Source: Blasia pusilla
Taxonomy: Eukaryota
DNA: 64,000 bases
Reading direction: 5' to 3'
Assembly: GCA_050084515.1 (NCBI GenBank)
Contig: CM114271.1
Coordinates: 5,022,001 to 5,086,000, forward strand
Below are positions 28,621 to 59,775 of the stretch, in pieces. The notes beneath the pieces were generated by a model. The model saw nothing but the letters and a program-made list of their open reading frames with translations. It made no database searches and was not told the origin of the DNA. Numbering within the stretch: position 1 is the first letter of the stretch; each line of letters opens with the position of its first letter. The position numbers and the translations under genes were made by a program.

Positions 28621-31600
28621 GATGTTGCAAGAGGTCATTACTATTGCACTTGTTAGCCTTACGCCTAGTCGGACAATTGAGGCAATGGTTGGGGGTAAGA
28701 TCTAAAGCAATCAAGAGAGATAACCTTGGACTTCTTGGGATATGTTTTAGGCACTCCAAGAGATGGTATCTACAACATCAAGTGTGGTTCATGGTCTTAC
28801 ACACCGAGGAGCAAGGGGAGATGAGATGTTTGAGCTAGCTGCATGGGAGAACTCGAGTGCTTTTATTCAAGATGGGGTTGCACCATAGCAACCAAAACCA
28901 TTAGTGTGAGAGAGTCTTACAATAATCATGATGGAGACTTGGGAGCCACATATGGGCCCAGATAATAAGGAGTCACGTGAGTTGTTTTGCATTCAATATG
29001 TTGATTTGGGTACACTAAAGGATCTAGGGATCCACATTGAATTCTCTTGCGATACGCCAATCTTTGGACGACCCTATAGGTATAGTGATATGGAGATGGG
29101 TTTGATTTGAAGCAAGAGATAAGACTTGGCTAGGGCACGAGTAGTGGAGATGTCAAATGGAGAGTATACATCTGCCATTGTCATGCTAGCCAAGAAGGAT
29201 GTGCATGGCAACTAGACGGGAAGGCAAAGGTGTGAAGATTATCTGCCTATTAATCAACAAGAAGATAAAGTCCAATACAAATGCCATACCCACTCCTAAG
29301 GAGATATTTAAAGGTATTGAGCATGCAAAGGTTTCCAGTTTGTTGGATCTTTAATCCAAACATAATTAGCTCCCTATCAAATAAGAATACATATCAAATT
29401 CGGCGTTTGGGGCATCAATTCTCATGGGAAGGAGTATTTATACTAGTGGCAATTCTTACCATTTGGGTTTAAGAACACCCCAACAGAGTTTCTGAGGATT
29501 ATGGACAGAATCTTGGTAGGTCTGGATTTTGCTAGATCTTACATTGATTACATCCTAGCTCGCATCCTAGTCTTTAATGCCACGGTTGAGGAGCATGAGC
29601 GACATCTGGAGGAGATATTTCTACGATTAAAGTTACATGGTTAAAGCTTTATCGATGCAAGTGCAAGTTATTCTATGACCAGATTGAGAACTTGGGTCAT
29701 ACGATATACCTAAGAGACCTTGGTGTTCAACAGATGAAGGTAGAGGCTATCTCACGCATTCCTCATCCTATAGATGTAAGTCGAGTTCGCGAATTCATGG
29801 GATTGGTGAACCTCTATTGATGGGACACCAAGGGTTTCAATTTGATTGTGAACCCAAAAACCTAGTTGATTGAGGTGGATCATGAGTGGCACGTACTAGG
29901 GGGATGAGCAAGAGAGAGCATTTTAGTTGCTCAAAGACAAGTTGACCTCCGCGCGTATATTGAGGAGACCTATGGGAGGGGCTTCCTTTCCAGTTGCATA
30001 CAGATTGGAGTACATTGGAGCTTGGAGCACTACTCATCCAACATGATGATGAGGGTAGAGAGTTTTGGGTGGCTTACAATAATTACTTGAACAATGTTGC
30101 AAAGGAAAAATATAACTTGTATGAGGTTCAGTGCTTGGTTGCAATGTGTGATCATGGATTATTGCACATTCCAAATGTTACTTATTCAAAAATCCCCTTA
30201 CCATCCTTACTAATCACCAATAACTTGAGTGGATGAAAGAGTTTGACAAGCTTACATGGACGTTTGCTAGGTGGGCTCTATTGTTGCAAGAGTACCCTTT
30301 CCAGTTGGTACATTGATTTTGGACGCGCAACTAAGATGCATGTTCAAGTTAGCAAGATGCGACTAGAGCTCATTGGTATGGAGAGAGTGATGAGGGGATG
30401 GTGCATGGATGATACGAGTCCGTCTATTTGCATTTTTTGGCTATGGTGAGCCATGGTATTGGAATTTCAATGGTAAGATCCAATGGAGAGTCATTAGATC
30501 CAAAGGTTAGTGAGGAGATGATAAGTGGTCTGGATATCCATGAGAATGGGATAGTCTTGGACCACCTATGTATTGGAAACATTCCGCGCATAGGGGGTAC
30601 GTGCTAGAGAGAGAGAGAGATCGGATCCTACAACAAGCTATACGGTTCTAGTGGGAGGAGACAAATGTCTTATGAGTTTGGAAGGATTGTACAGTACATA
30701 CAGTGCCTTATCCTTGAGAGAGAGCACGATAGGTGCAACATGCCCATGAGGAGTGGGTACACTTTGGAGTGAAGCGGACATATAGCTTACTCGAGATATA
30801 ATATTGGTGGTGAGGCATGCAACCTAATGTTTAGCAATTTGTTGTCAGATGCAAGGTATATGTTCGAGTTTGAGCATCCTTCAACGCTCCAACTCCACAC
30901 ATGTATCCACTACCAATCATGAGTAAGGCTATAGACGGATTTTGGATTTTGTAGGATCTTTACCTTTAACAAAGTGCCATAGTTGTTATGTGATGATGAT
31001 GGTCAAGCACTTCTCGAAGTGGATAAATTTGGTTGCATTTCCTAAGAAATTGAGTGAGGGAGTAGCATATGAATTCCTAAATCAAGTGATGAATCATTAT
31101 GGTGCACTAGTTGAGGTGTTGACACAGTTTCATGGGGAGATCTAGGCCTTGTATGACCTAGCGTTGATCAAACACCACACTGATTCACGAGATGATCCTA
31201 AGGAAAATGGACTAGAAGAGAGAGTTTTTCATATGGTGAAGAGAGGTTTACGTAAGTATGGTATGAAGAGAGGTCACATAGGAGATTGGGACCTACAATT
31301 GCCATGGTTGGCAATGGGATATAGTTTGAGTAGACATGCATTCTTAGTGTCTTTCTTATCTTACTTGTTGCTTTATGGCCGGGAGTATGACAAATTTGCG
31401 TCCATTTGTCAGTGAGATGTTGAACTTTGATATCCCTTATGTATGGATGCAAATATGTTCCTAGAGGGCAGAGTTATTTCACAGAGTTATGCCCATGGCT
31501 ACTTTGAGGTATGCGCCTATTCAAGGAGGTGGTTATCGACTGACGATACATAGGTTTCATTAGGGAGACTATGTCTACTTGCATCAACTTATATCTACGA

Positions 31601-31788
31601 TGTTGGATGCGAGATAAGGACACACCATATTGAGAGTGTATGAGGTATTTCCAATAGGTGTTTTCTTATTGGATGGATGTAATGGTATGGTTTGGAAGGA
31701 CCATATGAATAATCATACGCCATATCATCTTCCTAACATTGATAGTACTTTTTATCCGAGTTTAGCAAGAGTTCCTATAGGCTTGCAT

Positions 31789-31905
31789 TATATGTTGTGT
31801 GGTTCTTCCCATAATATAGACACCATGCTAGTTTGTGATGGATGTTCGAGAGGATAGCACACGACATGTGTGATGCCATCCTCTCACTGGGATTCTTCTG
31901 GGAAA
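31789..31905 (+). pseudogene. PHD finger at the integrase C-terminus (copy 1)
   Basis: Reads YMLCGS...MLVCDGCSRG*HTTC. Copy 2 gives CMLCGS...RGRHLAC...WTCP and copy 3 gives IPRGGWICP, together a C4HC3 consensus. Confidence 0.8.
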
Positions 31906-32649
31906 ATTAATATGCTATATATATATAGTTAGTTAGTAGATACTAGGTAGTCATAGATCCAAACTTATGTTGGTAACATGGATAAAAAGAAGGTGGCTAA
32001 AAATCGGGCTTCACGAGCACGCGAAAGTTTTGCTATTAGCGTCGAAGATACGTTTATCATGGTAGATAGGGATAGATTGGCTATATATAGTTATAGGAAC
32101 CTAACCACCAGCTAAGGAAGAAATTGGAGATATTTTGATACATGATCATCTCAATGTTCAAATGCCATAAGTGAGTTATTGTGAGTATGGTATCTTGTGT
32201 GTTTTAAGTTTGTAGTTGGTGACAGTGATGTATGTTGTGTAGCAATGTGTATGTACACAACATACTTCTAGTACATCGTTGGCAAGTCTTATAGCCAGCG
32301 ATTAAATTACCACAACTTGTATATCGTTACCACACAACACAATAACAAACTAAATATAAGAGAAAGAGATGGTGGATTCTAATTCCATTTTGGGAAGAGG
32401 AGAATTGGGTTCATCACGAAAAAATCCAAATAATTAGAATATCCAATCTAAGTTTACCTTTATCTTTGTAATAGTTAGATGGTCGTTTCACTATAATTCT
32501 AGGAGGCTTGAAGGATGGTCGTTAGATATATTGGGGGTAGTATACCTTGGACCCATCCAGATTAGATGCATGTAAGGATCTAACTTCATGCAAGTCCCAT
32601 ATTAAAAAATATTAAAAAATTGATGGAGATAGGGAATAAACACACATAT

Positions 32650-33640
32650 ACAATTTTTAGCAAGGGATAAACCAATTTCTAGGAATGCCCCTTGTGAATA
32701 TTTTGGTAGTATACGTGGGAGGTGAATGCTTCATTAAGGCTATTAATGAGTGAGGCATGATGAAAAATGCAAGATGGATTGCACAAACCAATATTTGGCA
32801 TATCAACAAAATGGACCCAAAGAGTTTCATTCAATTATGATAGATAATGCCGTAATTTGTAAGTTGGAAAAATCTTTTATTATCACTAGAAGAAAACACC
32901 ATTTTTAATTATGATTGAAGCATGATTGACTTATATATTTTACATGATACGATGATGACTCATAAAAAAATAAGAATGAGTCACGTAGTCGTCATGTGGA
33001 TTTTTAGTTAGTAACTAGCTAGTAAAAAAGCATGACCCACGAGTCATAAAACCTTAAAAATTAGAATGGCTCACTTGAGTTACAAAATGTTAGACATCAT
33101 TACATAATGGTATGGCACATTGGTCTTAATCACTGAAGATACTATGTGTAAGCTCCAAGACTCATGCGTCCACTCTAGCTACTCTTTTGATTGACATGAT
33201 GGAGAAAGAACAAGAGATTACTAGAAATATGGAGGACCTTTGAAACCTAGACGTGTTGCTTCTTTGATCATTGTGATAATAGATCACGAATATGGCATCG
33301 GTGCAAAATTTGGGTGAAGGTGCGGAACTTAGGTGGAGTTTGGATGAAGTGGCAACATTTGTGTGAAAATAGTCGGATCAAAGATTGATAAAAATACAAG
33401 ATATTGTTATTTTCTCCAAATCAGGTGACATATACTCTCTTTGCCCTCACGAAGCTTATTATCGTTGGACAATTGTGGCTCAAAGTTTGACAAGAGTGAT
33501 GCCTAGTGGATGAGATATGGAATTTTTTGGAGTTAATACAAGTTCTATCGACCATGGTGATGTGCCCAACCTTGTATCTCTTCAAAGTGCTTATAGTGGA
33601 GATCTTCCAAGAAAGGTATGTCGAAGGTGGAAATTCTTGA
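32650..33640 (+). pseudogene. Possible hAT transposase remnant (may continue at about 38530-38760 beyond the LINE)
   Basis: Fragments resemble hAT/DUF659 segments (PLVNILV..FIKAIN, GPK...DNA.IC, FFG...VPNL) but are heavily disrupted. Confidence 0.35.
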
Positions 33641-33683
33641 CTCTCTCTCTCTCCTCCTCTCTCTCTCTCTCTCTCTCTCTCGA

Positions 33684-33716
<33 letters not shown>

Positions 33717-33723
33717 TCTCTCT

Positions 33724-33757
<34 letters not shown>

Positions 33758-33782
33758 CATCTCTCCTCTCTCTCTCTCTCTC
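33641..33782. repeat. Interrupted (CT)n microsatellite
   Basis: Directly visible. Confidence 0.95.
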
Positions 33783-33783
33783 A

Positions 33784-36700
33784 AGACTTGTTTAAAAAAA
33801 TTCCATATCTCATCCACTAGGCTCTCTCTCTCAAACTTTGCCCAATTTTCCAGCGATAATGGAACCTGTAGTGAGCTTGTGATGTCAAAGTTGGTAGGTG
33901 TGGATTAGTGTGTCATGTAATCCATGTGATATCTTGTATTTTTATCAATAAGGTGTCCACTGGACTTTTGGAGAAATGGAGACCTCTCCTTCTTTTGAAG
34001 TTCGGGATTCACGGGCCCTCTCTCGATGCCTTAATGCCAGTGATCTATTTCACCAATGATCAAAGAAGTGATGATCTACAGGGGGGTTTCAAGCGGGCTC
34101 TCTTTGGGCAATCTCTTGTTCTTTCTCCCTCATGTCAAAATAGTAGCTAGAGTCCTTGTCTGACTCTCTTGGAGCTTAAACATTCTCCCAATGATCCTAA
34201 ACAGTTGTTTGTCAAACCTCTACATATAATGCGGCCTTGAGCCCAACATATTCCGTCCTCCCAAGCTTGTGAGGAGTATCATTCACCTATCAAAAGGATA
34301 CCAAAGCCAAAGATCCCATGCGGGTGGGGAATACTAGCATGTTTATGTGAGACGCTCAAAAAAGTTCGGACTGGGCAGCCGTGACTCATTCTTATTGGTC
34401 TATAGGAGGAGACCACGGTTCCACATGATCATTTTCAATCATGCTTCCCCATAATTAAAACTTTGTCTCATTTAAGATCATAAAGACTTTGGGCTTTGAA
34501 TTCTGGCATTATTATCGGATGATGAACGGAAATCTTGTATCTTTGGCGTCTATTTGTTGAGGAGGCCAATACTTGGCTTGCCACAAAAACTTGCATTGTC
34601 TCAAGATCTCAGAATGCCTACAATCGAGGGCTATGGTAGTCGAGGGTGGTTACTGAAAAAGGCCCATTCCACAAAAAATTGGTTGGTGATCTACACACCT
34701 AATGTCTTTAGTGTTCTCCAAGGGACCAGCGATGAAGAGCATCAATTTTTAATGAAGAGGTTCCATGAAGTTAGACCACACCGATGCCTAAAAGCGTGGG
34801 CCGATCCCCAACCCACTTAGTGATGGTAATGACCGTTTGCATACCTGGAACCTGTGGATTACTCATGCAATGAAGCGACCGAGGTTCTGAAGTTTTGCTG
34901 AAAAATCAAATACATATATTGGGGTCTAGAAACTTGGGAAACCAAGTTAATGGAGATACCCTATTACCACACTATGCATGGTTTGGAAAGAATCCACCAT
35001 CTCTTTCTCTTATATTTAGGTATGAAGGGTGTTGGGTTCTTCATCGAGACTTCATGGTGGGGTAGGTGTGAGATCATCGGCTATAAGACAGGCTCGATGT
35101 ATGAACACGAAAGATATGGGTCAAAGTCCACATGAGTGCAACTCATGGGATATGTATATTGGGTGTATTTACATGCCTAAAACAAACAAGATGAATATGT
35201 TGTTGTAATAGAGGCATTTGATAGTGTGAAATGATTGCCTTGGGTTTCAAACAAAGGGGAACATAGTCTTCCTTGAGGAGACTTAGGTTCCTGGGTAACT
35301 ATAGCAAGGCACCGATCCCCTAGCGGTGATCGGGATGTTTGGAGATGTGAGAGTGAATGGCAATGGCACATGGTGATCACGATGTTGAGGGAACTTCAAC
35401 CGATGGCACTTAATGATAAGCATAAGGTGGGATCCCGGCTTGGACTAGGGTCAACTTCAAGGAGAATGAGAGCTCCATTTGGACTCCATAGTTGTGGATG
35501 AGGAACTCTCACACACGCAGTGGGAAGATCCATGGATGCAAACTAGACATTGGAAGATCAGATCATTCATTGAAGAACCGGACAACATATTGCAAGCAAA
35601 GGCTAAAATGCTTGACCAAACCGGATAAAGAGGGTGATCAAGAAATGGAGGTTAGAGGACTTCCAAGATGAGGGCAACAAGAAGGTGTACATTGGCAAGC
35701 TGGAAGAAAATCTCTTGGCATTTGACACTTTCCATTGAATCTACCGTCAAGACCTTTGGGTTCACAAGAACAACACTCTGGACATGGTGTTCATATCATG
35801 GTATCCAGCGTGGAGTAGATATAAGTTGATGCCGACATAGTCTCCCCCGAGAACCTTGTCGGCAGTGAAATTGATAATATGCGGCAGAGCCGTCAAATGG
35901 TGGTCCTTGGAACTCAAGGAAATAACCATTGCCAAACGAAGGGAAGCGTATGTCACAAGTGCCAAAGGGATATCGATGCATCCTCATTGACAAATGTGGC
36001 CCACGCAGGAAACCCGTCTTCTGCGCATGCACAAGAAGAAAATGAAGACAAGCCACATACTCATCCATCAATGAGAATTGCCAACCGAGAATGGAAAAAG
36101 TTGGATGGAAGTGCAGAAATTGAGCAAGGCCAGGGGACAAAAACGACGTAAAGGCCTTGAAGAGAAAAGACGGTGGAATGGTGACCCACGGCTAAACAGA
36201 TCCGACATGTGTTGGAAGGCCATTACAAGGAGTTAGGCGGGAAGCCCGCTCGGACATCCCTTGAAGAGCGAGAACCGAGAGGGTGGTGGAGGATTTTGTA
36301 AAGATACAACGGGAGAAGGCAGATGATGAGGTTGAGTTGGGCAACGATATAATGATTGGTTCTCCCTGGCCGAGGTGGGAGCAGCAATCAAAGAACTTGT
36401 GAACCATAAAGCGGCGGTGGTGATGAGCTTGTGAATGAGTTTGTTGAAGTATGGCGATCTTTGCTATGGCTCGTTCTCTAGTGAGTCTCTTCAACCTAGT
36501 CTGGCGGGCGTAAGTCATCCCACAAAGATGGCGGATGGGAGTCATCGTGAACCTCTTCAAGAAGGGTGGCGAGAAGACCATGGAAACTAGGGGTATTATA
36601 TTCTTGAGTGTAGTCGGGAAGCTCCTTTGCCGTATACTCAACAATAGGATCTCTATGCACCTGGAGGAGAATTTTGTCATCAAGGAAGGCCATGTGGCTT

Positions 36701-38466
36701 CCGGCAAGCCCGAGGATCGTGGACCACATCTTCACCTTCAGTCAGATCATCCAAGGTAGGAAAAAAGGGGAAACCCACCTATTGCTTCTTCTTGGACCTC
36801 AAGAAGGCATATGACATGTATGGCGTGACAGGCTTTCTTATAGCTTTGTGGAAGGCGGGGTGAGAGGGAAAATGTGGAGGATGGTGGAGAAGATGTACCG
36901 AACACAAGGAGTAGAGTTATGGTGAATGGCCAAAAGAGTGGGACATTCGACATCAAGCAAGGAGTGGCTCAAGGATGCCCGCTCTCCCCCACCCTCTTCA
37001 ACATTTTCATGAATTCCCTATTGGAAGAAATGGAGGATAGTGGACTAGGCATATGGGTGGGCAACAACTCTATTGTTGCCCTGATGTTTGTTGATGACTT
37101 TGGTGGCCTCGAGGAAACAGGAGAGAAACTCAAGAGATGATCTCCCGACCAAAATCTGGTGTGACATGTGGGGCATGGAGGCAAATGTCTTGAAGTGCGG
37201 TGTGATGATTTTCAATGGCAAGGAGGAGGACCAAGACCAACAGTGGTACTGGGGTGACCAAGAGATCCCCGTGTGGCTACATACACCTATCGTGCATAGA
37301 ATTCTCGGAAGATTGCATGTGGGATGCACACATTAAGAAGACTCTTGAGAAAGGCCACAAGAAGGTGAACGGGTGTCTAGATTCCTATAGTGCCGGGACA
37401 TCACATCGAAGTAAAGCGTTGTGTCATTTTGCATACCATTTGTCCTCGCTGGAATATGGGGCAGCGGTGTGGGATGCCAACACCAAACAAAGGGATAGGC
37501 TTGAAGTTTGTGCGGTGAAGGCGTTTGGGTATGATGTCAACTTCATCACGAACGACCAGCGTTGGTGTGAGATCAGAACTAGGTGTGGAACCCTTGGAGG
37601 ATAGACGTGACATCGCCAAGTTGAAATGGCGGAGGCAGTGGAGACAATGGACTCCCATCGCTATCCTAAAAAGAGGTGATTGGGAAAACTGGACCCAAAG
37701 AAGACCAGTAAAAAAGGCCAAATCTTGGGACGAAAAAGGTTCAAGAGATTGTGCAAGCATCCAAGCTCCCGGCAAGGCCTGAATGGGGAGCAAGATGAGA
37801 AAGCATTCGTGGATACCATAACCCAAGCGGTGGGCAAACGCTCACGCAGAATGAAAGAGCGGAGGAAGCCATGAAAATGTCGACCTCTCTCTTTTGACGG
37901 TATATCCCGAGAGGGCAGAATCAAGAACTATTTATGGGAATCCTTGCTTGGGAACCAGGCTCAAGTTCAAGTTAAGGGACGGGGCAATCCCCTTGAACCA
38001 TAAGAAAAGCAGGATGGGAACACAACTAAACTCTTGCGCCTTGTGTGACGATGGGGACGAAACCTCTAGTCATTACTTGGTCTCTGCGCCAAAATTCACA
38101 AGACACAGAGCAAGAGCATATCTCGATATTGCTAATTTGGTAGCACCGAATTGTTCAACACATTGTAGCCTTGATTCATTGCCCAAAGTTCTTTGACCTT
38201 TGGTAAGTAATGTCTATTGGGGATCCCAATCAGGTAAAGTAGATGGTGTGGTGAAGAGCTTCTTGGTTGACACTTGAAGCTCCGCACAAACACGTTGTTT
38301 GGTCAAAGCACTCACACTATATGAGAGTGTCTCCCTCCTCTCATATGGTACCTTCTTCACTTGCTTCTCTCTCTACACCCATCCCACTCTCAAGCACCGT
38401 CCAACCAGTATGCGGGGTCTATGGTGCAAGGCTCGCAAAGGCACTACTTAAGGCACTACTTCTCTG
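33784..38466 (+). mobile_element. LINE (APE-type non-LTR retrotransposon), near full length but frameshifted
   Basis: An endonuclease-like start (TWN at about 34845) is followed by RT motifs RGIIFLSVVGKLLCRILNNRI, FLDLKKAYD, GVAQGCPLSPTLFNIF and LMFVDD, then LEYGAAVW and a C-terminal CALC...E...H knuckle. The 3' end carries a tandem AAGGCACTACTT. Confidence 0.9.
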
Positions 38467-41799: not shown

Positions 41800-44700
41800 A
41801 AAGTGAGTTCCAAGGGAAATCCAAAATGACAAATCCTACAAGGAGGGTCCCTCTAAACGATGCACGAGTCAAACATGGCTCATAGATATTTATGATGTAG
41901 ACATTTTTTGATTGAATATATAGCACCGATGGGTTGGTGACGAAAGATTGCCATAGGGGCATGTGAGCGGGAAAAGGAAATGACGTTTTGAGAACCTCTC
42001 TAGTTGCTTCAACTTGACCATTTTGGGGTCATGGCCAAGTCAAATCAATGAGAATTTCTCTTGTAACCCTCATAACCAAAGGAGCACCAAGCAGAACATC
42101 AGAACTCATTGGGCTCACGCTAGGATGGTTGCGCGTTGGAGAGGTCTCTTGAAGGAGATACAAGATATGAGATGAGTACATGCCATCAGATACACAAGTC
42201 TTAAGAGCAATGTTCTCTAAGGAAACAGATATGGAGAGGAGGATTCGTGAAGGATACATGAAGGACACCCAAGCAAGAGAGTACCTAACAAAGTTGAAGC
42301 GGGTGAGAAGGAGGCCAACAGAAGTTTGAGCCATGGTTTGCTAAGGTTTAAGCAGAGCAGGATATATGTGGGTGAAGGCAAACAGCAGACAAAGGTGTTG
42401 GGAAAATGTCATGACGGACCCTTGGCAAGACATAAAGGGGAGAGATCCACACTGTCTATTCTGACTAAGAGGTTCTTTTGGCCCAACATGAAAAAGGATG
42501 TTTCTCAGTATGTAAGGACATGTGTAATTTGTTAAGCAAATTTGAATAGAGTTTATTTTGAGAAGAAGCAAGGCTTACTTGATCCTTTTTCGATTCCATA
42601 AGGACCCTTGAAGAGTAGAAGTATGGATTTTATTACGAGTCTTATTGAGTTTGAGGGATACAATGCTATACTTGTGATAGCTTTTCAGTTTAGCAAATTG
42701 GGGAGCTTCATTTTGACGATGGATCCCACAATCCTGACTGTTTGTGGATCGTTCACGGCAAACTCATGAGTTGCCTAGGAGTATTGTCTTATATCGAGAT
42801 CCAAAGCTTACCAATGTTTTTTTTGAAACATCTATTCATAACGTTTAGGAGCAAGCTGAGTTTTAGTACAGCCTTTCATCCTTATATAGATGGACAAACA
42901 GAAAAGGTAAACTCAACCATAAATCAGTATTTAAGGAAGTATGTAAGTGCAAACCAGCGATAGTGGGCTAGGTGGCTAAGTATGGTTCAGTATTGCTACA
43001 ACTCGACAAATCATTCTACAACTGGAGAATCTCTGTTTCTTTTGGCGTATGGATGTGAGCTAGAAGGGCCTCTTGACCTGGCCCTTTTGAAGGGTACTAC
43101 ATCAGCACATACTCAACCAAAAATTACAGAAAGTTTGTTAGTGGAGATGCAAGAATGGGAGGAGTGGGCAAGAAAGAGTTTTGTAAAGTCTCAACTAAGG
43201 TACGTTAAGCATGCTAACAAGAGTCCGCGCCAAGTGAGATTCCAAGTAGGGGAGCAGGTGTGATTGAGTGTCAAGAACCTCACTCTTCTGAAAGAGTTAT
43301 CTACAAAGTTGTCTGCCAACTATGTTAGACGATATGTGATCAAGGGAAACCTGTTTGAGAATGTTTATACATTGGAGCTTCCAGAAGAGTTCAAGATTCA
43401 CTCGACTTCCCATGTGTCATTATTGAAGAAGTGTCTTTAAGATAATGTGTGTTCCGAGTGAAGAAAAAGAAAAATTGGAGTTCGAGATAGAGACCATGCG
43501 TTGAGACATCAACATAAACCTTCTTAATGTCAAGTTGAGGAGCTACCATGTGACATCAAATTTCATTCAAGTAGATTTAATCAACAAAAGATGTTGCAAG
43601 ACTTCAACGGTTGCATGCAAAAATTAACATGTTTAGTACATGGAGTAGCTAGAGACATGACTTGTGACTATAGGAAGCTTAGGCCAAAGGTCTTTGTAAC
43701 TAGAACATGCTAGTTTTGTTATAAGGGAATGAGTGGATTGGGAGATTCGATGCTTAGGTTTTAATTGCAATTTGTATATGGTAGTGCATGGCAATGAGTG
43801 ATTCCTCATATGTTAGGATGTAAGTCAAGAGGAGAAACAATGAGTATTTGAGGTGAGCACTCGTCTTTGGATAAGTAGTGAGAATAGGAAAAAGCGTTGG
43901 ATGACTAACATTTGGGCTCGCCCAAACGTCGGCGGGGCATATCATTCTCTCTTGGGGCTTGGGATCATCTCACTTGTGATAGTATGAATGAACTTAGTGA
44001 CGCACTTAAGTCTAATACGAGAGCGACCCAAAAGTAGTATGACTTGTGGATCTTATAAACAAGTGGGATGTTTACATGTTGTGAGCAAGTGAAGTCTTTG
44101 GAAACATACTTAGTTAGCTTATCTGATAGGTTAGGTTAGTTCCAAGGAACAAATCCAAGCTTATCGAAGAGGAGAAGCTAAAAGATGTTAATTTTTGCAT
44201 GCAACAACCTAAGACTTACGCCAAAAGAGAAATTGTTGATTAGCTACTTGAATGAAATTTGATGTCAAGGAGCTGGCTTCCCAAAAGGACTTGACATTAG
44301 AAGGTTTATGTTGATGAGGGCATCCACTTATTAAGAGAGGTGAGCGTTATGACTCCCGTAGCCAAACAAGCGGCAAGGGAAATATCAAAACTCTACTAGG
44401 CTCATGCTATGATGGTTGTGCATTGGAGAGGTCTCTTGAATAAGACACAAGATATGAGACGCGACCAAGGTTGAGTGTTTCATGCATTTTTGGTCGCAAG
44501 TGAGGAAACCTGAACCAAACGTGAACCGAGACTTGAGACAAGTCGAATCTAGTTGAGAACCGGACTTGGAACTAGACTAGAGTTTGGGTTTTGAGTGTAT
44601 TGCAAACCATAAATGTTGTAGCCAAGATTCATTTTGGACAAGTAAGGTTGCATTGGAAATCTTATGCAAAGCATACTCCAAAGCACCAAAGATCTTAGCA

Positions 44701-45328
44701 AACTAACGAGCAGAGGTTAAGGAATTTCCCAAAAACAATTAAATGGGGATTTGGGTTGAGGGCCAAAAAGAAGGGCTTGAGAGTCTTTTCCCAAAGATTA
44801 GGGGGAAGGCAGAGAACCCCATCAGTATTATAAAGGGGGAGGGCCTCCAAGAGTGCTTGGAACCCAAACCCCACTTTGGGGCGCCACAAGGTAAACCAAG
44901 GGCACAGAATGGATCCAAAGGTTGGCGTTGGGATGGAAACCCAAGCCAAGTCTAATAGAGTGGATTTTGGAGGTCGTTCTTGGATTCCAACCCCGAATCA
45001 TTTAAGTGGATTTCCGTTAAGGTCTCATGCGAGGTCCTTTGGACAATTGGGATCGCCGGGTGTGAGAACATTGTTTTAGGTGTCTAGACTATGCGAAAAG
45101 TCTATCCCAAGTCTCAAAAGACTTGCATGTGCTAGGAAGTGAGGAACTAAGAAGGTTGAGCTTGTTGAATGGCTTGAGGCCAGGCATCGCGGAGGTGGAA
45201 GGCTGATTGACCCAGACGAGAGTAACGTAAGTATGTTTGAGTGCAGATCAGCAATGAGAGTGTATCCTACTGAATGTACGCTTCCGCAACACTAAAGATT
45301 GACGTTCAAGAGGAGTAGACGCACAAAA
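41800..45328 (+). mobile_element. Chromovirus Gypsy, internally deleted: LTR fragment, integrase-chromodomain (about 42180-43610) and 3' LTR (43663-45328)
   Basis: Contains HDGPLARHKG...FFWPNMKKDV..YVRTCVIC, SMDFIT, STAFHPYIDGQTE and FQVGEQV. Same family as 26047-28050. The segment 42112-42172 recurs at 44399-44460 inside the LTR. Confidence 0.88.
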
Positions 45329-45339
45329 ATTTCTCACGA

Positions 45340-46055
45340 AAGAAACATAACTTGCTATATAGGACATGGATCTGGGATCCTCTAACTAGGTGTTAGTGAT
45401 GTCGATCGTTCCTTGCGGTTCCTTGACCATGGGATTCGTCCAATATCACGTTTTATGACCTATCCTAGTCCTAATGACACAGTACTAAAATTCGCATTTC
45501 ATCTATTGACATTGAAACAACAACAGTTACATGAATATTCTATGCTCTTCCAAAAATGGTTAACTTTGATGATATAAATAACTTATCGTAGAGTGATAGA
45601 TAGGCCTTAATTCCATTAGTAGCCACTATACAAAGGTGGAAGGAATAACGATGAACGATATAACATAGCAAAGAAGAAAACAAAAACAAGGAGAAACAAA
45701 TTTGATTTCTCATATATTCATATTGTGTATGTCAATTTCCACAATAGCTACGTGGTATGGGTAAGGATGGAGAATGATCACCTTTATTGCAAAGTATGAA
45801 TCGTAGTACATAGATTTTTGGCTCCCTCGTGAACTCCATCAAAGTTGCAAAATGATGGTTCCCATCCCATATATAAAATTGCAAAACGTTTGTCTATTTG
45901 TTCTCTATGAACTCCACATCTTTCCGGAAATCGACATCCCATCTTCTCCAATTGTCATCCTTTTTGTTACGATCAACCCTTGTTATAAAATGATGGATCT
46001 TATTCTTGTTGTAAGGTTGCACATAAAATGGTGGGAAACTCTCAAATTTTATGCT
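45340..46055 (-). pseudogene. Decayed coding remnant with a ParB/Sulfiredoxin-like DGNH(R) motif (may continue at about 40560-41790)
   Basis: Reads ...WRRWDVDF...FYIWDGNHHFATLME..., then after a frameshift IKVIILHP...IHNMN. The final CAT codon of DGNHH could derive from CGT (Arg). Confidence 0.45.
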
Positions 46056-47422
46056 CATCGCAACAAAACATACATCGTTATCACTCAGTATAAGTACATA
46101 CAGATAAGATACCATACCCACTCATGGCATCTGAATATTAGAATAGTCGACATTGATCATATACCAAAATATCTCCAATAAATCAAGATCACTCCAATGG
46201 TGCATAAAATCTCAATCTCTCTCATGTGAAACCAAACCCACTCTCCTAATCAAAGGCTAGGGTTACTCATAAGGCTAGGACCATAGCGCGGCCGTATTAT
46301 TCTAAGAGAATTCAACAAAGAGAGAATCAGTTATAGCCCTCTCTCTCTATGGGTATATCCCTTTCCTCTCCCAAATTCTCTCCACGATAACTTATACTTG
46401 TAGGTAACCTCTTCGATGTTAACCTAATGTAGGGGATTAAGAGCCTGTTACCAAAGTGGAAAGTCAACTATGTTCATGATAAGAACTTACAAAAATAGAG
46501 TAAACTCCTCAACAAAACTCCAAATGAGCTAAAAAAATGAGAAATCTGCTCTCTTAGGTGAACTCGAGACCTCAACAAGTCATCTTTGAGGAGATCGAGG
46601 TACCTCTCAAAGATGTATCTCGATCTCCTCAAAGATGCCCAACGGATACTTATCGATCTATCCTAAAAGACGTGAGAACTACCGTGCGCATGCACATCTC
46701 TACACAACATATATTGTTGTTATTGACTATGACCACATACATAGAAGATATCATACTCACTCATGGCATCCAAATATCAAGACAATCTTGTACCAAAATA
46801 TCTCCAATCTCCTCCCTAGCTGATGGTTAGGTCCCTCTAACTCCATATTGCCATCTATCCCTATCTACCATGACACACATCTCCATGAAACTAAGAGCAA
46901 AAATTATGGGTGTTCATGTGACCCCATTATTAGTCGCCTTCTTGTCATCCATATCGTTAATCTAAGTTTAAATCTATGACTACCCAATACCTATGGGGCA
47001 TGTCCATTATCCCCTATGAAGCCTAGTGAGAGGTGACATTGGACATGCCAAGTGCCTCCCTCTTAAATATCTATCAGATACTAGCATAGTGGTTGCACCA
47101 TGAGCAGATCCACACAACATACAACACAAGCCTACAAGAACAACTACTAGGCTCGGATCAACGATACCATTGATGTTAGGGAGATGACATAGTGCATAGT
47201 TACACACATGATCCTTCAAACCATATCATCATGCCCCTCCAATAAGAGAATATTGGATGGCAATACCTCACACATTCTCAAAATTGTGTGTCCTTTTGTA
47301 ACATCCAATATCTTTTGCTGCAAGTGTACATAGTCTCGCTAATGAAACCTTCATATCGTCCATTGATAACCACCTTTGAATTTGTAAATAGTTGAATAAA
47401 TTATCCTTTGCTTAATTATGGT

Positions 47423-47630
47423 GTACCTCTCAAAGATGTATCTCGATCTCCTCAAAGATGCCCAACGGATACTTATCGATCTATCCTAAAAGACGTGAGA
47501 ACTACCGTGTGCATGCACATCTCTACACAACATATATTGTTGTTATTGACTATGACCACATACATAGAAGATACCATACTCACTCATGGCATCCAAATAT
47601 CAAGACAATCTTGTACCAAAATATCTCCAA
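47423..47630. repeat. 208-bp near-identical direct duplicate of 46600-46807 (LTR segment)
   Basis: Only two C/T differences seen by eye. Confidence 0.9.
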
Positions 47631-48289
47631 ATTGTGTGGGATGTTACTAATGACCAAGTCCTTGTATGGGATCCGTGAAAATATCACCAGGAAAATACTA
47701 TAACTTTAGTATGCATTCATGCAAGAGTAAAAGTAAAGGATAGTATCATTGTTCAATCCTAGTAGGCAAATTGTGATGATATCACCCAGAAAAATCACGA
47801 AAAGCATCCAAAATAAATTATTGTGTAGATATAATAATCCATCATCCTATTGTACGAGTGGATCCTTATGTTAATGTATCTAGAGAGAGACTTATTAATT
47901 GCTTAATTATGGTGTATCATTTAAATGTGTAAGTGTAGTAAAATTGTTCGCATGAGCTGGTGGAGCTATGGTCCTCCTTGCCTTGCGAGTAATCCAAGCC
48001 TCTAAATAGGAGAGTGGGATTGGTTTTACATACGAGAGAGTAAGAGGCTAGTGATTGACATGTGATTCCATAGTTTAGAGCATGATTTCTATCTCCTATA
48101 ACCTACTCTCCCTCCAAGAGGAGATGCAACGGGTTATCACGCAACCTCCTTGTATATTAAGTGCTTTCAGTCCAAAGATTAGGAAAATCTAGAATGAGCA
48201 TTTGCTTCAAGCACACGCCTTACCAACAAATCTTCCCACTTATTGTGCCAATCATGGGAGGCCTTCAATGTAACATTGCCTTTGACGTA

Positions 48290-48660
48290 GCCTATGACAA
48301 GATTCCCAAGATCCTTATCATCTCTCAAAATAACCTAGACCATGTGTAAGCTAAACCACTTCCTTGTCCACCACTTGATTGGACCTAACATGGCCAACCC
48401 TCAATGACCAAATCAACGGTCCCCACCTGATCCAAGTCCCACGCCCCCAACAAGGACATATCCTTCGGCAAGGAATTGTGGTACCCCTACACGACCAACG
48501 TAGATAACAAGTTGGGGAAACGAAGGAATAATTGCACCAGAAGTGATAAACCTAATTAAGGTGCAAAAAATACTTTTGCACACACACTCCTACATGCAAA
48601 AAAAACAAACAACCCATTTTTTATCCCTCTAAAGAGATCCAACACTCGAATATCCATCTC
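48290..48660 (-). pseudogene. C5 cytosine methyltransferase N-half (motifs I-V), copy 2
   Basis: Reads IRVLDLFRGIKNG (motif I), PKDMSLL (III), VDLVIEGWPC* (IV; catalytic Pro-Cys at 48388-48393, followed by TAG probably derived from CAG Gln) and GSGLAYTWSRLF*EMIRIL. Confidence 0.9.
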
Positions 48661-50440
48661 TAAGATGCGCCACATATTTGGTGTGGTATCCAAGGATAAC
48701 ATTATTATGTTGTTTGCTACCTTGGACTCCTCTGACCCATCACGTTCTGGTGCAAATATCTCACTCTACGCCATTGGCACGTGCTCATCGGCTAAGCGTA
48801 TAAGCTCCTCACTCAAGCCCCACAAAGGCAACTCATTTCCACGGAATGATGCTGCTATCATAATACTCCTCTCCATAAGGGTGTAAATCATGGGTGTGTC
48901 TTCTACATAGGCATGCCCCTCAATCAAATCCTCAAGTCAAGTGATGGTGTTATCAAATGTTGGTAGAGTCGCCATCTCTCCTAGTACTCGTTCATTCATT
49001 CCACTCATCAATCAAGCGGGTAACAAGCTAAGTCGCTCATCACATCACTTCCATCTTGGTCTACATGACGCTGACTCCACCTTATAATCCAGGGAAAATC
49101 CCATTGGGTACAACACTATTCCTCCAACCAAGATGTGGTAGGACTCGACATCGATCACAAATGCCTTGGTTGGCACCACGGACTCACCTAATAGATGTCT
49201 TGGTTGAATCCTCACCATGACCTCATGTCGAGTGATAAAATTCATCATGCTCACTCCAACCAATGATGTTTGTATCCTTAATAGGAAACGCTCCACATCG
49301 GCCCTCGTGCCTAATCCCCTTTCCCAACATCAGGGGTTGCGCTCCCAAATCCAACAAGACGTGCTATGGACTAGAGACTCTACCTCCTTGACTCACCAAA
49401 TAGAAGACCTCTTCCCTTGTTATCTAGCAAAACAACACATGGAGAAACCATGGCACTCTCTATCGTGGGTCTTGCGGGCATCTCCGCCATCCTAGCAGTC
49501 GCAACTTACCATGAATTTGAGTTGGACGGTTTGAGCAAACGCTCCAAAGTCAGGTCCACCAAGGCTCAAGCATATGCTTCAAAGGAACCTCCTCTATAAC
49601 CATCTTTGAATATGATGCAAAATCCCATCTCCATGCTCATATAGTGTAGCGGCTAGCCAAAAATCCTGGTACACATACCTCCCAATGTCGTTGAAAACCA
49701 TGGAATGTGGTACATAGCAGTGGCCACCCCCAACAACGTACATGGCTTATGCTTCACCTAAACATCAGCAATAGGAGTCATCGCATTTTCTTTTCCTATC
49801 GCCCATTATTCTTGCACACCACCAACATCCATTGAGAACTTTTATTATGAACCATCGATGGAGTCCTCATCACAAAGTAAACGAATAGGGAAGTCTGGTT
49901 TGTTTCTAGGCCTCCCCCTTCTATGGATCCAACTCTATTGCTACTCCATTTGTAACAACAAAAATTGCCTCGATTTGTACAACCTCACACATCCAACCTG
50001 AATCCTCCATATCTCTAGTTGTTCCATATGATGTTGATGCCATTGATCCAGCATCAGATAACCTCAATGTCATTGCGGTAATCTACTACTGCAAATGCTC
50101 TATCAAAGCAACCATCCTAGCCTCATGCCTAGAGTCTTCCTCATCTCGTCTAGGTGGCGGACCTCTACCTCCTCCCCACGATATCCAACTCCTCGTCACC
50201 CTACGCAACCACTTGATGCACAACCTTTGGGCCCACATGCACTACCAACTTGCGCTAGTACCCTCTTCGGCCTTCAATCCATATGTAACTCAAGGTGTAA
50301 GCTTGCACACCTAGCGTGCGTATGACCATACCGCTGAAAATGGTCACTCAAGTACATCCCAAGTGTACGCCTATGTACTCTTTCAGGTCAAGGCACACAT
50401 CCACTACCCTCACGGGTTGAGAATGGACTCCATCACATAC

Positions 50441-53092: not shown

Positions 53093-53929
53093 GGTCCATT
53101 GCAAAAAAATTTGGGTTTTAGTACTCCCTCCAAGGGTCATTGTAAACCCTCCAGGCGGATTCGGCGCTTTTTGTTTGGGGATTGGAAGAATCTTCAAAAT
53201 GACTATTTACTTCAAGTATAGGCCTAAACAATAACTCATCCCACTTAACATGCTTATCATGGGAGGCCTTCAATACAACAAAGCCTTCAACAAAGTTTAC
53301 TTTTGAGGCAAGTTGGTGAGTTTTCACGTGTGGCTTGAGCATTAGGTCTTCTCTCTCTAAGGCTTCTAAGTGCAGACACAAGGGCACTCTTAGAAGCTCT
53401 TCACCTCCTTCAAGCCATGATGCATTATCTTTTGTGGGAGATTGTACAATATGTTTTGACTTGGAGGTTTTCACAAGGGTTTCTTTCCATACTCATATGT
53501 TATTAATAGGCAAGCTTTTAGGCATGGTTTTGAGCATCTCCACCATTTTTTTATCTGGACACATTGGCAAGATATTTTTTTATCTCTATATAAGTTGTGT
53601 GCACATATTGCCACATGTTGCCTCCCATAGTCTATCTATAGGCTCTTGGGTTCTTGTCATTCATTGGCTATGGCTAATCCTCTTTCTAGTATTCGCCTTT
53701 TGTCCATTGGAGAGTTTTTATATTGCTTGGTTGGTCGATCCTTTGTTTGCAATTTCATCCTCATTTTAGCGCCCACTTATTTATTTATTCTCCAATCAAC
53801 TTGGGGCATGCATTTTGGTTATCCCATAGATGGCCCACTCTTTGCTAGTGAACATTTTTTTACTTTTAAAGCATTATCCCAAGTATTTCCATCTTGTCTA
53901 CATCCTTCTATTACTAAGATGCCCACATT

Positions 53930-56379: not shown

Positions 56380-59300
56380 CATAGGTCCTAGGTGAAGATG
56401 GTAGATGAGAGTTCATACTAGGGAGAGCATTTCCGTGGACGGGAAGAGAGCCGATTACCATTAGGGCTACTTTGATGGGGGTTGTGGGGCGGATTTTGGC
56501 GGGGTTTGTCTCTCGAGTTTGACGGAGGGGGTCATGTTCTCTTCTTGGTGAGAGGTATCCATGCCTCGACCCGCATCGTCCCCTCGTGTAGGGGCTCGTG
56601 GGTCGTCTAGCCGAGATACGAAATGCCCTTGTTGTCTCGAATTCTTCACTCGTTCAGGAATTCGGAACCATTTAGCCACTAAACATCCTGACTTTGATAG
56701 ATTCGGATGGGTGGTTCCTCTAGTCGATCATGGATGCTCACCGGTGCTTCATGCATCATCGCCCCTCCCGAGGCATGGGAGTGGTTGAGGTCCCATCTTG
56801 GCAGCATCACAGGTCTTTTTGAGACTCGTTTTCCCTGCCCGAGGTTATTTCAAAGGATCCCCCGTGCTATTCGGGATGAGCTTTGCCAGTCTTTCCTCCT
56901 TCCCTTATCTAGGATTGCACTTGATCCTATGGATGAGCTCTCGTGGTATCTACTACTTCTCCTTCCACAATGGTGTCTTTGCTATATCCGAGGAGGGAAG
57001 GTTGGCCATAGAGAGGTTGTGGCCGGATTGCGGCGCTTTCGAAGAGGTGATTGGGAGTCTCTGCGAGCGAGTTCGTGGCATATGCCAGAGGTAGCATTCC
57101 ACGTGTTTTCCCAGCGGAAGATCTTGTAGTTGCTAGATTGCGACGATGTAGGAGACTTGGGCGAGCCAGGGAGTACTCGCGAGTGGCTCGGGCGCTCCGC
57201 CCTATGGATATGGCTCCTCCTTCCGCTGTTACCATCTACGCCCTCTGGAGGCTACACCCTTGTCCAATGGTTGACATCCCTGCATTTGTACGTGACTTCC
57301 ATCATGACACGACCTTATGCCTAGACCCGTCCCTCTTTGCACGGGCACTCGGGCGTTCCCCTAGGATAGCAGCTGGAGGGTTGTCCGGTATGATGTACAA
57401 ACACCTTCGTGATTGCTTTCCCCCCGAGGACTCTGCTAGCGACTTTTCCGAGTTGATTCATGTTGCCTCTCACCTAGCTCAGGGGAGAGTGCCAACAGCA
57501 ATAGCCCAGGTATTGGGGGCGGGGCGACTTTTGGCGTTATCGAAGGAGGGTGGAGGGATCCATTTGATTTCCATAGGGGAGGTGCTCTTACGGTTGGTGA
57601 GTCGCACTATCGCTTTGCAATTCCGTGAGGCTTTCCAGTCACATCTGAGTCCGCACCAATTCGGAGTTGCCACGCCAGCCGGTTGTGAGGATGTAGCCTT
57701 AGGTTTGAGGGCTTGTTTAGATATACATCCCGAGTGGGTGGTTCTCCAAGTTGATGTGGAGAACGCCTTTAACTCAGTGTCTCGGGCAGCTATCTTCACG
57801 GAGCTGAGAGACGCAGGGGGTCCCATAGCGAGTCTGATTCCCTTCGTGCATGCCTTTTATGGGGTCCCCTTGGCTCTCTATTTCACTACAATAGGTTCGA
57901 GGAGGAGGTCACGGTCTTGGAGTCTGCTACCGGGACGCGTCAGAGTGATCCCTTGGGTGGTGCATTGTTTCTTTGGCTCATTATCGAGCGGTTCTTTCTA
58001 TGGTGGAGGCTTTCCCGAGTTGCATTTTCCCTTCGTTGGCAGATGATACTCACATTTTTGGCCCTGGAAACTTGGTTGTTCCTGCATTTCAGCACTTTTC
58101 AACACAGTTGCCACACGTCGGCCTCGCGGTGAAGGTGGGAAAGTGCAAGGCTTGGTCTTCATTAGGCTTGTCAGCGGATATTCATTTACCCGGCGGTTTT
58201 TTGACACCTGTTGGAGGGCTTCGCGTCTTGGGAGTCCCACTCGGGAGCCAGGACTTTGTATCGAGTTTTGTGGCGGCGGCTCTTACCGAGGATCTTCTTC
58301 ATGTCGACGATCTCACGAGGATTGATGACCCTCAAGTAGCTTATGGAATCCTCTCGTCATGTTTTTCCCGTAGACCTGGTTATCTGTGTAGAACCGTGTG
58401 GGCAACTAGCCATATTTCTTCCTTGTATAGATCCTTTGATAGAAAGATTATGCAGGGGTTTGGGGATCTTCTAGGACCCGGCTCATTAGAGTGCCCCGCG
58501 GGGGAGTTAGCTCATAGTCAGGCTTCTTGGCCGATTGCCTTTGGTGGAGTAGGTCTCATAGCGACTGAGTTAGTAGCGTCTTCAGCCTTTTTAGGGAGTT
58601 GGGTCAGTGTAGCACCTCTCCTTTGCTCCCGATTTTTTGTTACGGATAGACCGCTACTTTTACAGACGTTTCCCATGTTGAGGATGGTCTTCTCCCACTC
58701 AATCTTCACTCACAACTTGTAGAGACTCCCTTCTTCTTGAGGCTAGAGCAGTTCTTCCCGCTTTCTCTTCCCTAGTTACCTCTGGAGAGTGTAGGCTCCA
58801 ATCTTCTTTGATGGAAGCCCACTTTTGATGCATTGTTTAGAGCTACTATGTCGGACGGGAATATCCCCATGGAGGTTCGGGCCCGTATTCGCTCTTGCTC
58901 TGAAAAGGGGGCAAGCTCATGGGTAGGGGCTCGTTCCCTCATCCCGGCTTTCCGCATCACACCACTTACCTACACTACAGCGATGAGGTTCCGACTGGGC
59001 CTGCCCCAACGAACGGTGGTTGGTTCGACACATTGCGAGTGTCGCCGGAGCCTGGATCCACTTAGTGTGCATTTGGCACGGTGTTCAGTTGGGGGTGAGA
59101 GGATAGCCACTCACGATGCAGTGCCGGATATTATGTTCTCTATTGCTCGAGAGAGTGGATTCCATGTACAAAGAGAGAGTCACTACTCCATACGGGATTC
59201 CCTCATCCGTGCTGATCTCTACATGACGAGGGAGTCTGAGGTGGTGGTAGCGGATGTTGTAGTGACGGATCCTACGCGGGAGGCGGTGCGAGCCCAAGTG

Positions 59301-59775
59301 GTAGCACAAGGGAGATTTCTACAAGGAGCGGCGGCGGCGGCCCACATTTCTAGTCGACTTCATGACGGACATCGATTTATCCCCCTAGCCATTGAGATGT
59401 GTGGGGCGATGGGGGAGAGGTTTGACTCGTTCCTTACGGATTGCGCCCATCATCTCCAGTCGAGAAATGGTTTGTCCTTAGCCACTGCGGTACTTTGTTG
59501 TAGGCAACGGGTCTCCATAACTTTGCAACGCGCCCTGGCAAATGGGCTTCTGCGGCGGACCCAACCGCCGCCAATGCTAGAGGCCCACTTAATAGTAGTC
59601 ATATTTTTCTAGGTGTTGCTGATATTTTCTCTGCTGGTGATGATTTTGGTGGTTAGGGGAAAACCCCTTCTTTCTCATCGGGACCGATTATGACCTCTTG
59701 AGGTCTATTTTTTAGCCCTCTATGCCCCCTCTTTTGTATAGTGATGGGTTTCTCATCCTTTTTCTAATATAATTT
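56380..59775 (+). mobile_element. CRE-like (RLE-bearing, single-ORF) non-LTR retrotransposon, near full length with a few frameshifts
   Basis: N-terminal C2H2 finger CPCC...IRNHLATKH. RT motifs AAGGLSG, RLLALSKEGGGIHLISIGEVLLRL, HQFGV..PAGCE, QVDVENAFNSVSR, GTRQSDPLG, LADD and VLGVPLG. Then CEC...HLARC..GGERIATHD and RADL..DV...FIPLAIE..G, a restriction-like endonuclease. Confidence 0.9.

Follow-up and report, generated by a model that had tools for sequence, protein, structure and literature searches.

The window analysed here is a 64,000-nucleotide stretch of Blasia pusilla DNA (contig CM114271.1, positions 5,022,001 to 5,086,000 of the forward strand), rich in transposable elements and with about 40% G+C. 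It contains two damaged copies, here called A and B, of a retrotransposon that carries a C5-methyltransferase domain beyond its protease. Copy A spans 22976-31885 on the plus strand and has the entire domain order, interrupted by a nested chromovirus fragment, and copy B lies on the minus strand. Our subject is the methyltransferase remnant of copy B at 48289-48687. This segment is very probably the N-terminal part, now pseudogenised, of a Dnmt3-type methyltransferase that formed a module of Pol in a Ty3/gypsy element of the order gag, aspartic protease, Dnmt3, reverse transcriptase (RT), RNaseH, integrase and PHD finger, with copy B a truncated and rearranged member and copy A a full-order member split by the chromovirus.

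Architecture of the two copies

The methyltransferase remnant of copy B is read in a minus-strand frame descending from 48765, with LDTTPNMWRILEMDIRVLDLFRGIKNGL at motif I (48654-48610) and later GTVDLVIEGWPC at 48420-48385, followed by a TAG codon. The letters of motif I and motif IV quoted in the original prediction are both present on this strand and in one frame. Motif I, a loop of the F-x-G-x-G type, is present but mutated, reading LDLFRGIKNGL in copy B and LNLFAEINTWL in copy A compared with LDLFGGISTGL in relatives. Beyond the TAG the frame continues with GLAYTWSRLF, a TGA codon and EMIRILGIL, motif IV and the subsequent helix together occupying 48420-48298. Four in-frame stops fall within 48307-48700.

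Table 1 Parts of copies A and B and adjoining sequence, with positions in the window. Profile positions refer to a 342-position profile of the methyltransferase family. S-adenosylmethionine is abbreviated SAM.
Feature	Position	Strand	Remarks
Copy A gag	22976-24436	+	tblastn to P0081 9-485
Copy A protease	24678-25220	+	tblastn to P0081 553-731, E 4e-27
Copy A methyltransferase, N-terminal	25616-26046 (tblastn); from 25631 (family profile)	+	profile positions 2-142
Nested chromovirus fragment	26047-28028	-	5'-truncated; integrase SH3 and chromodomain; splits copy A methyltransferase; end begins TGTTGG at 26047
Copy A methyltransferase, C-terminal	28029-28744 (28035-28744 by tblastn)	+	profile positions 138-338; stops and frameshifts
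Copy A RT	28967-29856	+	tblastn to P0090/P0064; Pfam RVT_1
Copy A RNaseH	29903-30616	+	tblastn to P0090/P0064; Pfam RT_RNaseH
Copy A integrase	30607-31385	+	tblastn to P0090/P0064; Pfam Integrase_H2C2 1.3e-8
Copy A integrase C-terminus with PHD finger	31408-31885 (31408-31878 by tblastn)	+	tblastn to P0064 764-932
Copy B integrase C-terminus and PHD-finger remnant	46995-47371	-	tblastn to P0064 816-945; blastn to copy A at 71%
Sequence joined to copy B methyltransferase end	48196-48295	-	without detectable methyltransferase likeness; resembles 53201-53300
Copy B methyltransferase, N-terminal 40%	48289-48687	-	Dnmt3-type; profile positions 3-141 of 342; motif I to just beyond Pro-Cys motif IV
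Copy B motif IV	48385-48420	-	TVDLVIEGWPC then TAG; relatives have Gln at that codon (PCQGH)
Copy B motif I (SAM-binding)	48610-48654	-	reads DIRVLDLFRGIKNGL; relatives ..VLDLFGGISTGL; first Gly of the pair changed to Arg
Copy B linker, protease to methyltransferase	48701-49089	-	in frame with both; frameshift-free over 49305-48307
Copy B retroviral-type aspartic protease	49090-49526	-	active-site stretch LLDLGAQPLMLGK; tblastn to P0081 580-705 and to P0107
Copy B gag, C-terminal remnant	49873-50124	-	tblastn to P0081 395-479

Over 49526-48307 copy B aligns by tblastn with residues 580-1001 of the Marchantia polymorpha polyprotein P0081, and one match of 351 columns runs from 49305 to 48307 (residues 658-1001). 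The corresponding part of copy A, 24678-26046, aligns with residues 553-1009. Both copies are therefore colinear with P0081, which bears out the prediction that a diverged copy on the opposite strand has the same protease-linker-methyltransferase junction. The active-site triplet of the protease is Asp-Leu-Gly (LLDLGAQ) in both copies and Asp-Ser/Thr-Gly in relatives, and the Leu codons are TTG versus CTA between the copies (49346-49351 on the minus strand and about 24940-24950 on the plus strand).

Much of the element is absent from copy B. Its N-terminal gag was not found by tblastn with P0081, and nothing of RT, RNaseH or the integrase core is left between the integrase tail and 48289. Methyltransferase motifs VI (ENV), VIII, IX and X are absent as well; the last homologous profile position is 141 of 342, and the remainder scores no better than shuffled sequence. 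The suggestion in the original prediction that the consensus of the two copies looks catalytically competent is not supported, since copy B holds only positions 3-141 and is without motifs VI-X. Contigs with at most two differences span the copy B junction at about 48290 in three sequencing runs of the same organism, so the junction is not an assembly artefact.

Two candidates for further methyltransferase sequence, a continuation of copy B past 48289 and a third fragment at 53201-53300, were unsupported. Of the six reading frames compared with the family profile, beyond the break and on 53201-53300, five scored no higher than shuffled sequence; the third frame beyond the break gave 2.0 bits where the best shuffle gave 0.1, and a positive control from copy A gave 61.4 bits. 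Local DNA alignments of both regions to the C-terminal part of the copy A methyltransferase were likewise no better than shuffles, and a single tblastn match (P0068) extends to 48196 with a weak tail. A stop-free open reading frame of 124 amino acids at 53118-53492 on the minus strand, with no Pfam match, has about 100 nucleotides in common with 48196-48295 on the minus strand (76% identity in nucleotides, 56% in amino acids), and according to the contigs this stretch is repeated in the genome with other flanks. A 208-nucleotide direct repeat with 99% identity (46600-46807 and 47423-47630) lies on either side of the integrase-PHD remnant of copy B and is far younger than all its surroundings. 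A weak DNA match to the same remnant (65.5%) occurs at 14905-15334 on the plus strand and was not detected by the protein guides; possibly the family has here a third fragment in a more advanced state of decay.

The layout of copy A was derived by tblastn with three guides, P0081 (gag with zinc knuckles, protease, methyltransferase), P0090 (protease, methyltransferase, RT, RNaseH) and P0064. Its motif I is VLNLFAEINTWL and its motif IV reads DLVIAHCTC followed by TGA. The family profile recovers five colinear pieces (25631-25963, 25969-26043, 28023-28232, 28207-28425 and 28430-28621) that together cover positions 2-338 of 342, and motif VI (YIMENVP, within 28029-28621) and the DERERAMGFP stretch are kept in the C-terminal part. 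Copy A has the Ty3/gypsy Pol order of protease, RT, RNaseH and integrase, of which copy B retains only the protease and the integrase tail. The PHD finger of copy A (31795-31885) scores 19.5 bits in Pfam (E 1e-3), under the cut-off of 24; the PHD finger of the relative P0064, which aligns to both copies, scores 43.3 bits.

Several further features were seen around these parts. In this family a PHD finger closes the integrase C-terminus (31795-31885 on the plus strand, 46995-47225 on the minus strand), at the place where chromoviruses have a chromodomain. The nested chromovirus fragment is identified by Pfam (SH3_Tf2-1, E 2.3e-13; Chromo, E 3.6e-4) and aligns to 45329-42764; the chromovirus family to which it belongs (Integrase_H2C2, SH3_Tf2-1, chromodomain) has two copies in the window, at 42380-45344 on the plus strand and 26047-28028 on the minus strand, with 73-75% identity. 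The methyltransferase of copy A resumes without loss beyond the nested fragment, though that fragment is 5'-truncated. A 52-nucleotide tandem duplication with 85% identity lies in the gag region of copy A (24121-24224, plus strand).

A methyltransferase that belongs to a retrotransposon family

For sequence comparison we used a read-through translation of copy B (P0001, 194 amino acids, stops written as X) and the N-terminal piece of copy A (P0002). When 67 stop-to-stop pieces from both copies were run against Pfam, only chance-level matches were obtained, and the protease region of copy B had no match. A phmmer search of a protein library with P0001, by contrast in outcome, gave 72 proteins at E<=1e-3 and six at E<=1e-10, the best being P0003 (E 1.4e-23, 38% identity). 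Twenty of the 72 were scanned with Pfam and 18 passed the cut-off of PF00145; one scored 21.1 bits and one had no match. A profile built from the domains of 32 relatives (342 positions) scored copy B at 83.1 bits (E 5.4e-27). The library matches to proteins carrying PF00145 and the family profile thus place the likeness to a methyltransferase beyond chance. In the PDB, copy B matches DNMT3C, DNMT3A, DNMT3B and DRM2 at E values of only 0.6-1.7. The intact relative P0006 finds DNMT3A best (E 1.5e-8), then DNMT3B and DNMT3C, tobacco and Arabidopsis DRM (1.5e-6), M.HaeIII (8e-6) and M.HhaI. The domain is a genuine C5-methyltransferase and, judged by these best matches of P0006, probably of the Dnmt3 type.

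The relatives come from other plants and have the same organisation. A search for longer proteins seeded with P0003 gave 38 relatives, those with names being from Marchantia polymorpha (many), Sphagnum troendelagicum, S. fallax and Calypogeia fissa, and one seeded with P0008 added 90 more, named from Marchantia, Calypogeia and Sphagnum tenellum. P0081 (Mp_4g09160 of Marchantia polymorpha), P0090 and P0064 are colinear with copy A by tblastn through gag, protease, methyltransferase, RT, RNaseH, integrase and PHD finger. In P0107, Pfam places Asp_protease_2 at 763-849 and DNA_methylase at 1061-1134, and in P0037 an aspartic protease is likewise followed by DNA_methylase. P0090 contains DNA_methylase, RVT_1 and RT_RNaseH and also aligns to the protease of the window. 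Two proteins have another arrangement, P0059 with RVT, RNaseH, DNA_methylase and integrase and P0064 with DNA_methylase, integrase and PHD. The methyltransferase lies inside the Pol frame: copy B has one frame from protease to methyltransferase, with stops, and P0081, P0090 and P0107 have one open frame. Across the methyltransferase domain, relatives from other species have a complete and uninterrupted frame.

Further copies exist in the same organism. Contigs from four public runs of two studies were aligned to copy B at a likeness of at least 80%, which gave 492 to 1040 contigs per run; depth here is not a measure of copy number. Of the 240 variants in these contigs 40 were listed. At 48383 in motif IV the same variant, which changes a Val of copy B to the Gly of PC-x-G, occurs in 20-29 distinct contigs per run; at 48417, 15-40 contigs encode Ile, as copy A does; and beside motif I at 48656 one variant occurs in 17-31 distinct contigs per run. 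The methyltransferase segment is present in this organism in tens of different sequence versions, a statement about versions and not about copy number.

Taken with the same-order polyproteins of other plants, these tens of contigs make the methyltransferase a trait of the family. The original prediction had described it as a family trait propagated by retrotransposition, and this core holds, on database polyproteins and contigs that the prediction did not have. As read from the sequences, the domain belongs to the retrotransposon family and spread with it by retrotransposition; it is not a local addition.

Decay, competing explanations and other features of the window

Copy B (48306-49949) aligns with copy A (26023-24342) in the opposite orientation at 68.0% identity over 1727 columns (blastn, E 2e-173), with 1178 matches, 485 mismatches and 22 gaps by MAFFT, and a second block pairs 47381-46755 with 31519-32176 at 71% (blastn). 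In the frame of copy B through protease, linker and methyltransferase there are 10 stops in copy B and 15 in copy A, and seven positions are common to both. The prediction that the copies are damaged at different positions is correct only in part; seven of the ten stops of copy B are shared, including the codon directly past the catalytic Cys, which is TAG in copy B and TGA in copy A. The catalytic Pro-Cys, described as kept, survives in copy B (GWPC) and has become Thr-Cys in copy A (...AHCTC-stop). CpG is depleted (observed/expected 0.41-0.54), TpG+CpA is at 1.27-1.30, and transitions exceed transversions (methyltransferase part 64:48, protease 65:32). This decay, transition-rich, CpG-depleted and with stops at Gln, Arg and Trp codons, fits deamination of methylated cytosine. 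The divergence between the copies is essentially neutral decay. Copy B is an old, truncated and rearranged insertion, copy A an equally full-order but likewise old one, and both copies are now inert.

A number of results weigh against the assignment to an element with a functional methyltransferase module. P0001 scored 17.9 bits against PF00145 (DNA_methylase; E 0.0022), under the gathering threshold of 22, and P0002, the N-terminal piece of copy A alone, had no Pfam match. No LTRs (long terminal repeats), primer-binding sites or target-site duplications were found around copy A or B, and element boundaries and insertion events are not shown; decay or truncation may have erased the LTRs and target-site duplications. 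Codon-level constraint in the methyltransferase as compared with the protease, to which the original prediction pointed, was null in both when set against neutral simulation. The methyltransferase parts of the copies differ at codon positions 1/2/3 by 0.252/0.323/0.302, with no third-position bias (p 0.44) and a ratio of nonsynonymous to synonymous rates (dN/dS, NG86) of 0.53; for the protease the values are 0.283/0.183/0.299 (p 0.07; dN/dS 0.51) and for the linker 0.297/0.336/0.242 (p 0.25; dN/dS 1.16). In 1000 neutral simulations with the observed transition-rich spectrum (mean dN/dS 0.66-0.70, standard deviation 0.18-0.20), the methyltransferase value did not fall below the neutral distribution (0.66 +/- 0.18), 24.8% of simulations being as low, and for the protease (neutral mean 0.68 +/- 0.18) 16.4% were as low. 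Nothing in the window shows selection on the methyltransferase domain in this genome, and two decayed copies alone cannot demonstrate selection or independence. Outside this genome, a yeast assay of the comparable KnitGypsy-Dnmt3 element of Klebsormidium nitens detected no methylation, a result that its authors describe as inconclusive (de Mendoza et al. 2018, PMC5890265).

These data bear on a rather unlikely alternative, that the lineage multiplied here with an already dead methyltransferase, or as a non-autonomous deletion derivative moved in trans, the domain being inherited baggage. The stop past the catalytic Cys in both copies and the lack of codon-level constraint would fit such a history, and so would the layout of copy B, in which protease, half a methyltransferase and integrase tail resemble an internally deleted derivative. 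Moreover, none of the 40 variants listed among the 240 lies at 48385-48387, so no sense codon was seen there in other copies. The codon test, however, neither supports nor refutes this history, since the protease, which any autonomous lineage needs, is equally without signal (0.51 against 0.68 +/- 0.18) and the test is uninformative at this level of decay. Copy A retains all motif regions in order, the stops past the Cys are not the same codon, and the domain is intact in the relatives of other species, all of which speak against this alternative.

Shared damage could alternatively mean that a single insertion, already damaged, was copied and inverted in a local segmental duplication and subsequently rearranged to give A and B, in which case the second copy would say nothing independent; we consider this improbable. 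It would account for the coincidence of seven of the ten copy B stops with stops in copy A and for differences that look wholly neutral. The methyltransferase of copy B ends at profile position 141, within about two codons of the split in copy A at 138-142 (48289 versus 26043/28023), and a relative of the nested chromovirus lies near copy B (45329-42764) in the same relative orientation, at an identity of 73-75% that is similar to the 68-72% between A and B. The order of the blocks is nevertheless different, the chromovirus lying within the methyltransferase in A and beyond the integrase-PHD remnant in B, and no further collinear similarity was found outside element-internal parts. As a candidate for the sequence past the break in copy B we tried the end of the chromovirus fragment nested in copy A and rejected it (score 29.5 against 26.1 +/- 3.3 for shuffles). 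The sequences past the two breaks are unrelated, and the coincidence of the break positions is without explanation.

The shared stops themselves are compatible with parallel hits. Six of the seven common positions are Gln, Arg or Trp in the Marchantia guides (P0081, P0090, P0003) or in other copies of the organism, and a single transition turns the codons concerned into a stop. The guide segment has about 30 susceptible codons (15 Gln, 9 Trp and some of 38 Arg); on that count five common stops are expected, and seven or more have a probability of 0.12. Five of the seven use different stop codons in A and B, and in three of four runs CAG predominates among the other copies at the common stop 49366, with 394.6 of 408.2 in X1 as an example. 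The claim that the copies are separate insertions is likely correct but unproven, as no LTRs or target-site duplications were found. Even a duplication would leave the family-trait conclusion standing on the relatives elsewhere and the contigs. Finally, chance likeness, or a stray host DNMT3/DRM fragment beside a retrotransposon protease, to which the sub-threshold Pfam score and PDB matches with E around 1 might point, is refuted by the library homology to proteins carrying PF00145, by the single protease-linker-methyltransferase frame of copy B aligned over 351 columns to a Marchantia polyprotein, and by the same order in copy A, in P0037 and P0107 (protease then methylase) and, by alignment, in P0090, and its probability is negligible.

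Elsewhere in the window, a G+C-rich region (about 50%) at 57051-59612 on the plus strand has three long open frames (331, 257 and 266 amino acids) and resembles a younger non-LTR retrotransposon; a protein search with the first, LINE-like frame (57051-58043) found no protein at E<=1e-10. A separate RVT_1 match (E 2.9e-8) lies at about 36916-37100 on the plus strand within a G+C-rich block at 36000-38000, and a CT-rich microsatellite array occupies 33634-33782.

Relation to known elements and meaning

Elements of the gypsy-Dnmt3 kind are already in print for streptophytes, and the copies of the window belong to that known kind. KnitGypsy-Dnmt3 of Klebsormidium nitens has a Dnmt3 domain inside the Pol open reading frame of a gypsy element (PMC5890265), DNMT3 borne by transposable elements in streptophytes is treated as known (PMC12344493), and 'Gypsy-DNMT3' of streptophytes is named as a known kind (bioRxiv 10.64898/2026.05.21.726589). 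Like the family described here, KnitGypsy-Dnmt3 carries in the Pol of a streptophyte LTR gypsy element a Dnmt3-type C5-methyltransferase that is not rearranged as in DRM. Its copies conserve the key residues with Ka/Ks < 0.2, whereas the copies of the window are dead and without measurable constraint, a comparison made by description and not by sequence or exact order. PMC5890265 also describes a DIRS-like repeat structure, and no terminal repeats were found in the window. In its main text 'PHD' has no occurrence, and a literature search returned no paper naming Marchantia, Sphagnum or Calypogeia elements or the association with PHD.

The closest counterparts are the polyproteins of Marchantia polymorpha (P0081; P0090 = MARPO_0091s0058), Sphagnum and Calypogeia, which have the same gag-protease-methyltransferase-RT-RNaseH order and are colinear with both copies at 35-48% identity; they are open frames annotated as hypothetical, whereas the copies of the window are riddled with stops and copy B is truncated. 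The gypsy-type Pol proteins P0059 and P0064 carry a related methyltransferase, and the integrase-PHD tail of P0064 aligns to A and B, but in both the methyltransferase lies between RNaseH and integrase instead of between protease and RT, a second placement of the module. In the alignment of P0006, the family domain shares with host DNMT3A/3B/3C and plant DRM2 the motif I F-x-G-I-x-T-G, the Pro-Cys motif IV, ENV and the AHR-R-W-NL stretch. It differs from them in having no PWWP, ADD or UBA domain, in its position between protease and RT, and in being intron-less and multi-copy. SymbioDIRS-Dnmt3 and SymbioLINE-Dnmt of Symbiodinium and the EpiLTRs of Cymbomonas and Euglena are likewise described as retrotransposons with a captured C5-methyltransferase (PMC5890265; bioRxiv 10.64898/2026.05.21.726589); they differ in belonging to the DIRS or LINE class or in a methyltransferase of a DNMT4-sister clade, and in its place in Pol.

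Judging from the family and not from the dead copies, active ancestors would have translated the methyltransferase domain within Gag-Pol and released it with the protease. The freed domain would then act as a de novo C5-methyltransferase, with motif I predicted to bind SAM, the Cys of Pro-Cys in motif IV as the nucleophile, and ENV as motif VI. Its probable substrate would be the cDNA of the element itself or the integration site, and the PHD finger attached to the integrase would probably direct integration to particular chromatin. The domains of SymbioDIRS-Dnmt3 performed de novo CG methylation in yeast, and the authors propose that cDNA becomes methylated on reverse transcription (PMC5890265). 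The window itself adds little on mechanism, as both of its copies are dead.

What the window adds concerns the family. The comparison leans slightly towards a gypsy-Dnmt3 lineage that is not confined to Klebsormidium and is instead an old, bryophyte-type land-plant lineage, multi-copy in at least this genome, with the fixed order gag-protease-Dnmt3-RT-RNaseH-integrase-PHD, a de novo methyltransferase and a histone-reading PHD finger in one element, and a second placement of the module in relatives. Should active copies exist, elements of this lineage would provide early-diverging land plants with a mobile de novo methyltransferase activity present in many copies. The design is found in Marchantia, Sphagnum, Calypogeia and the present genome, and it comes with the PHD finger linked to the integrase. 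Public databases already contain open-frame relatives that would suit activity assays. It is rare and puzzling for a retrotransposon to carry the enzyme by which it is normally silenced, a parasite thereby borrowing the epigenetic machinery of its host.

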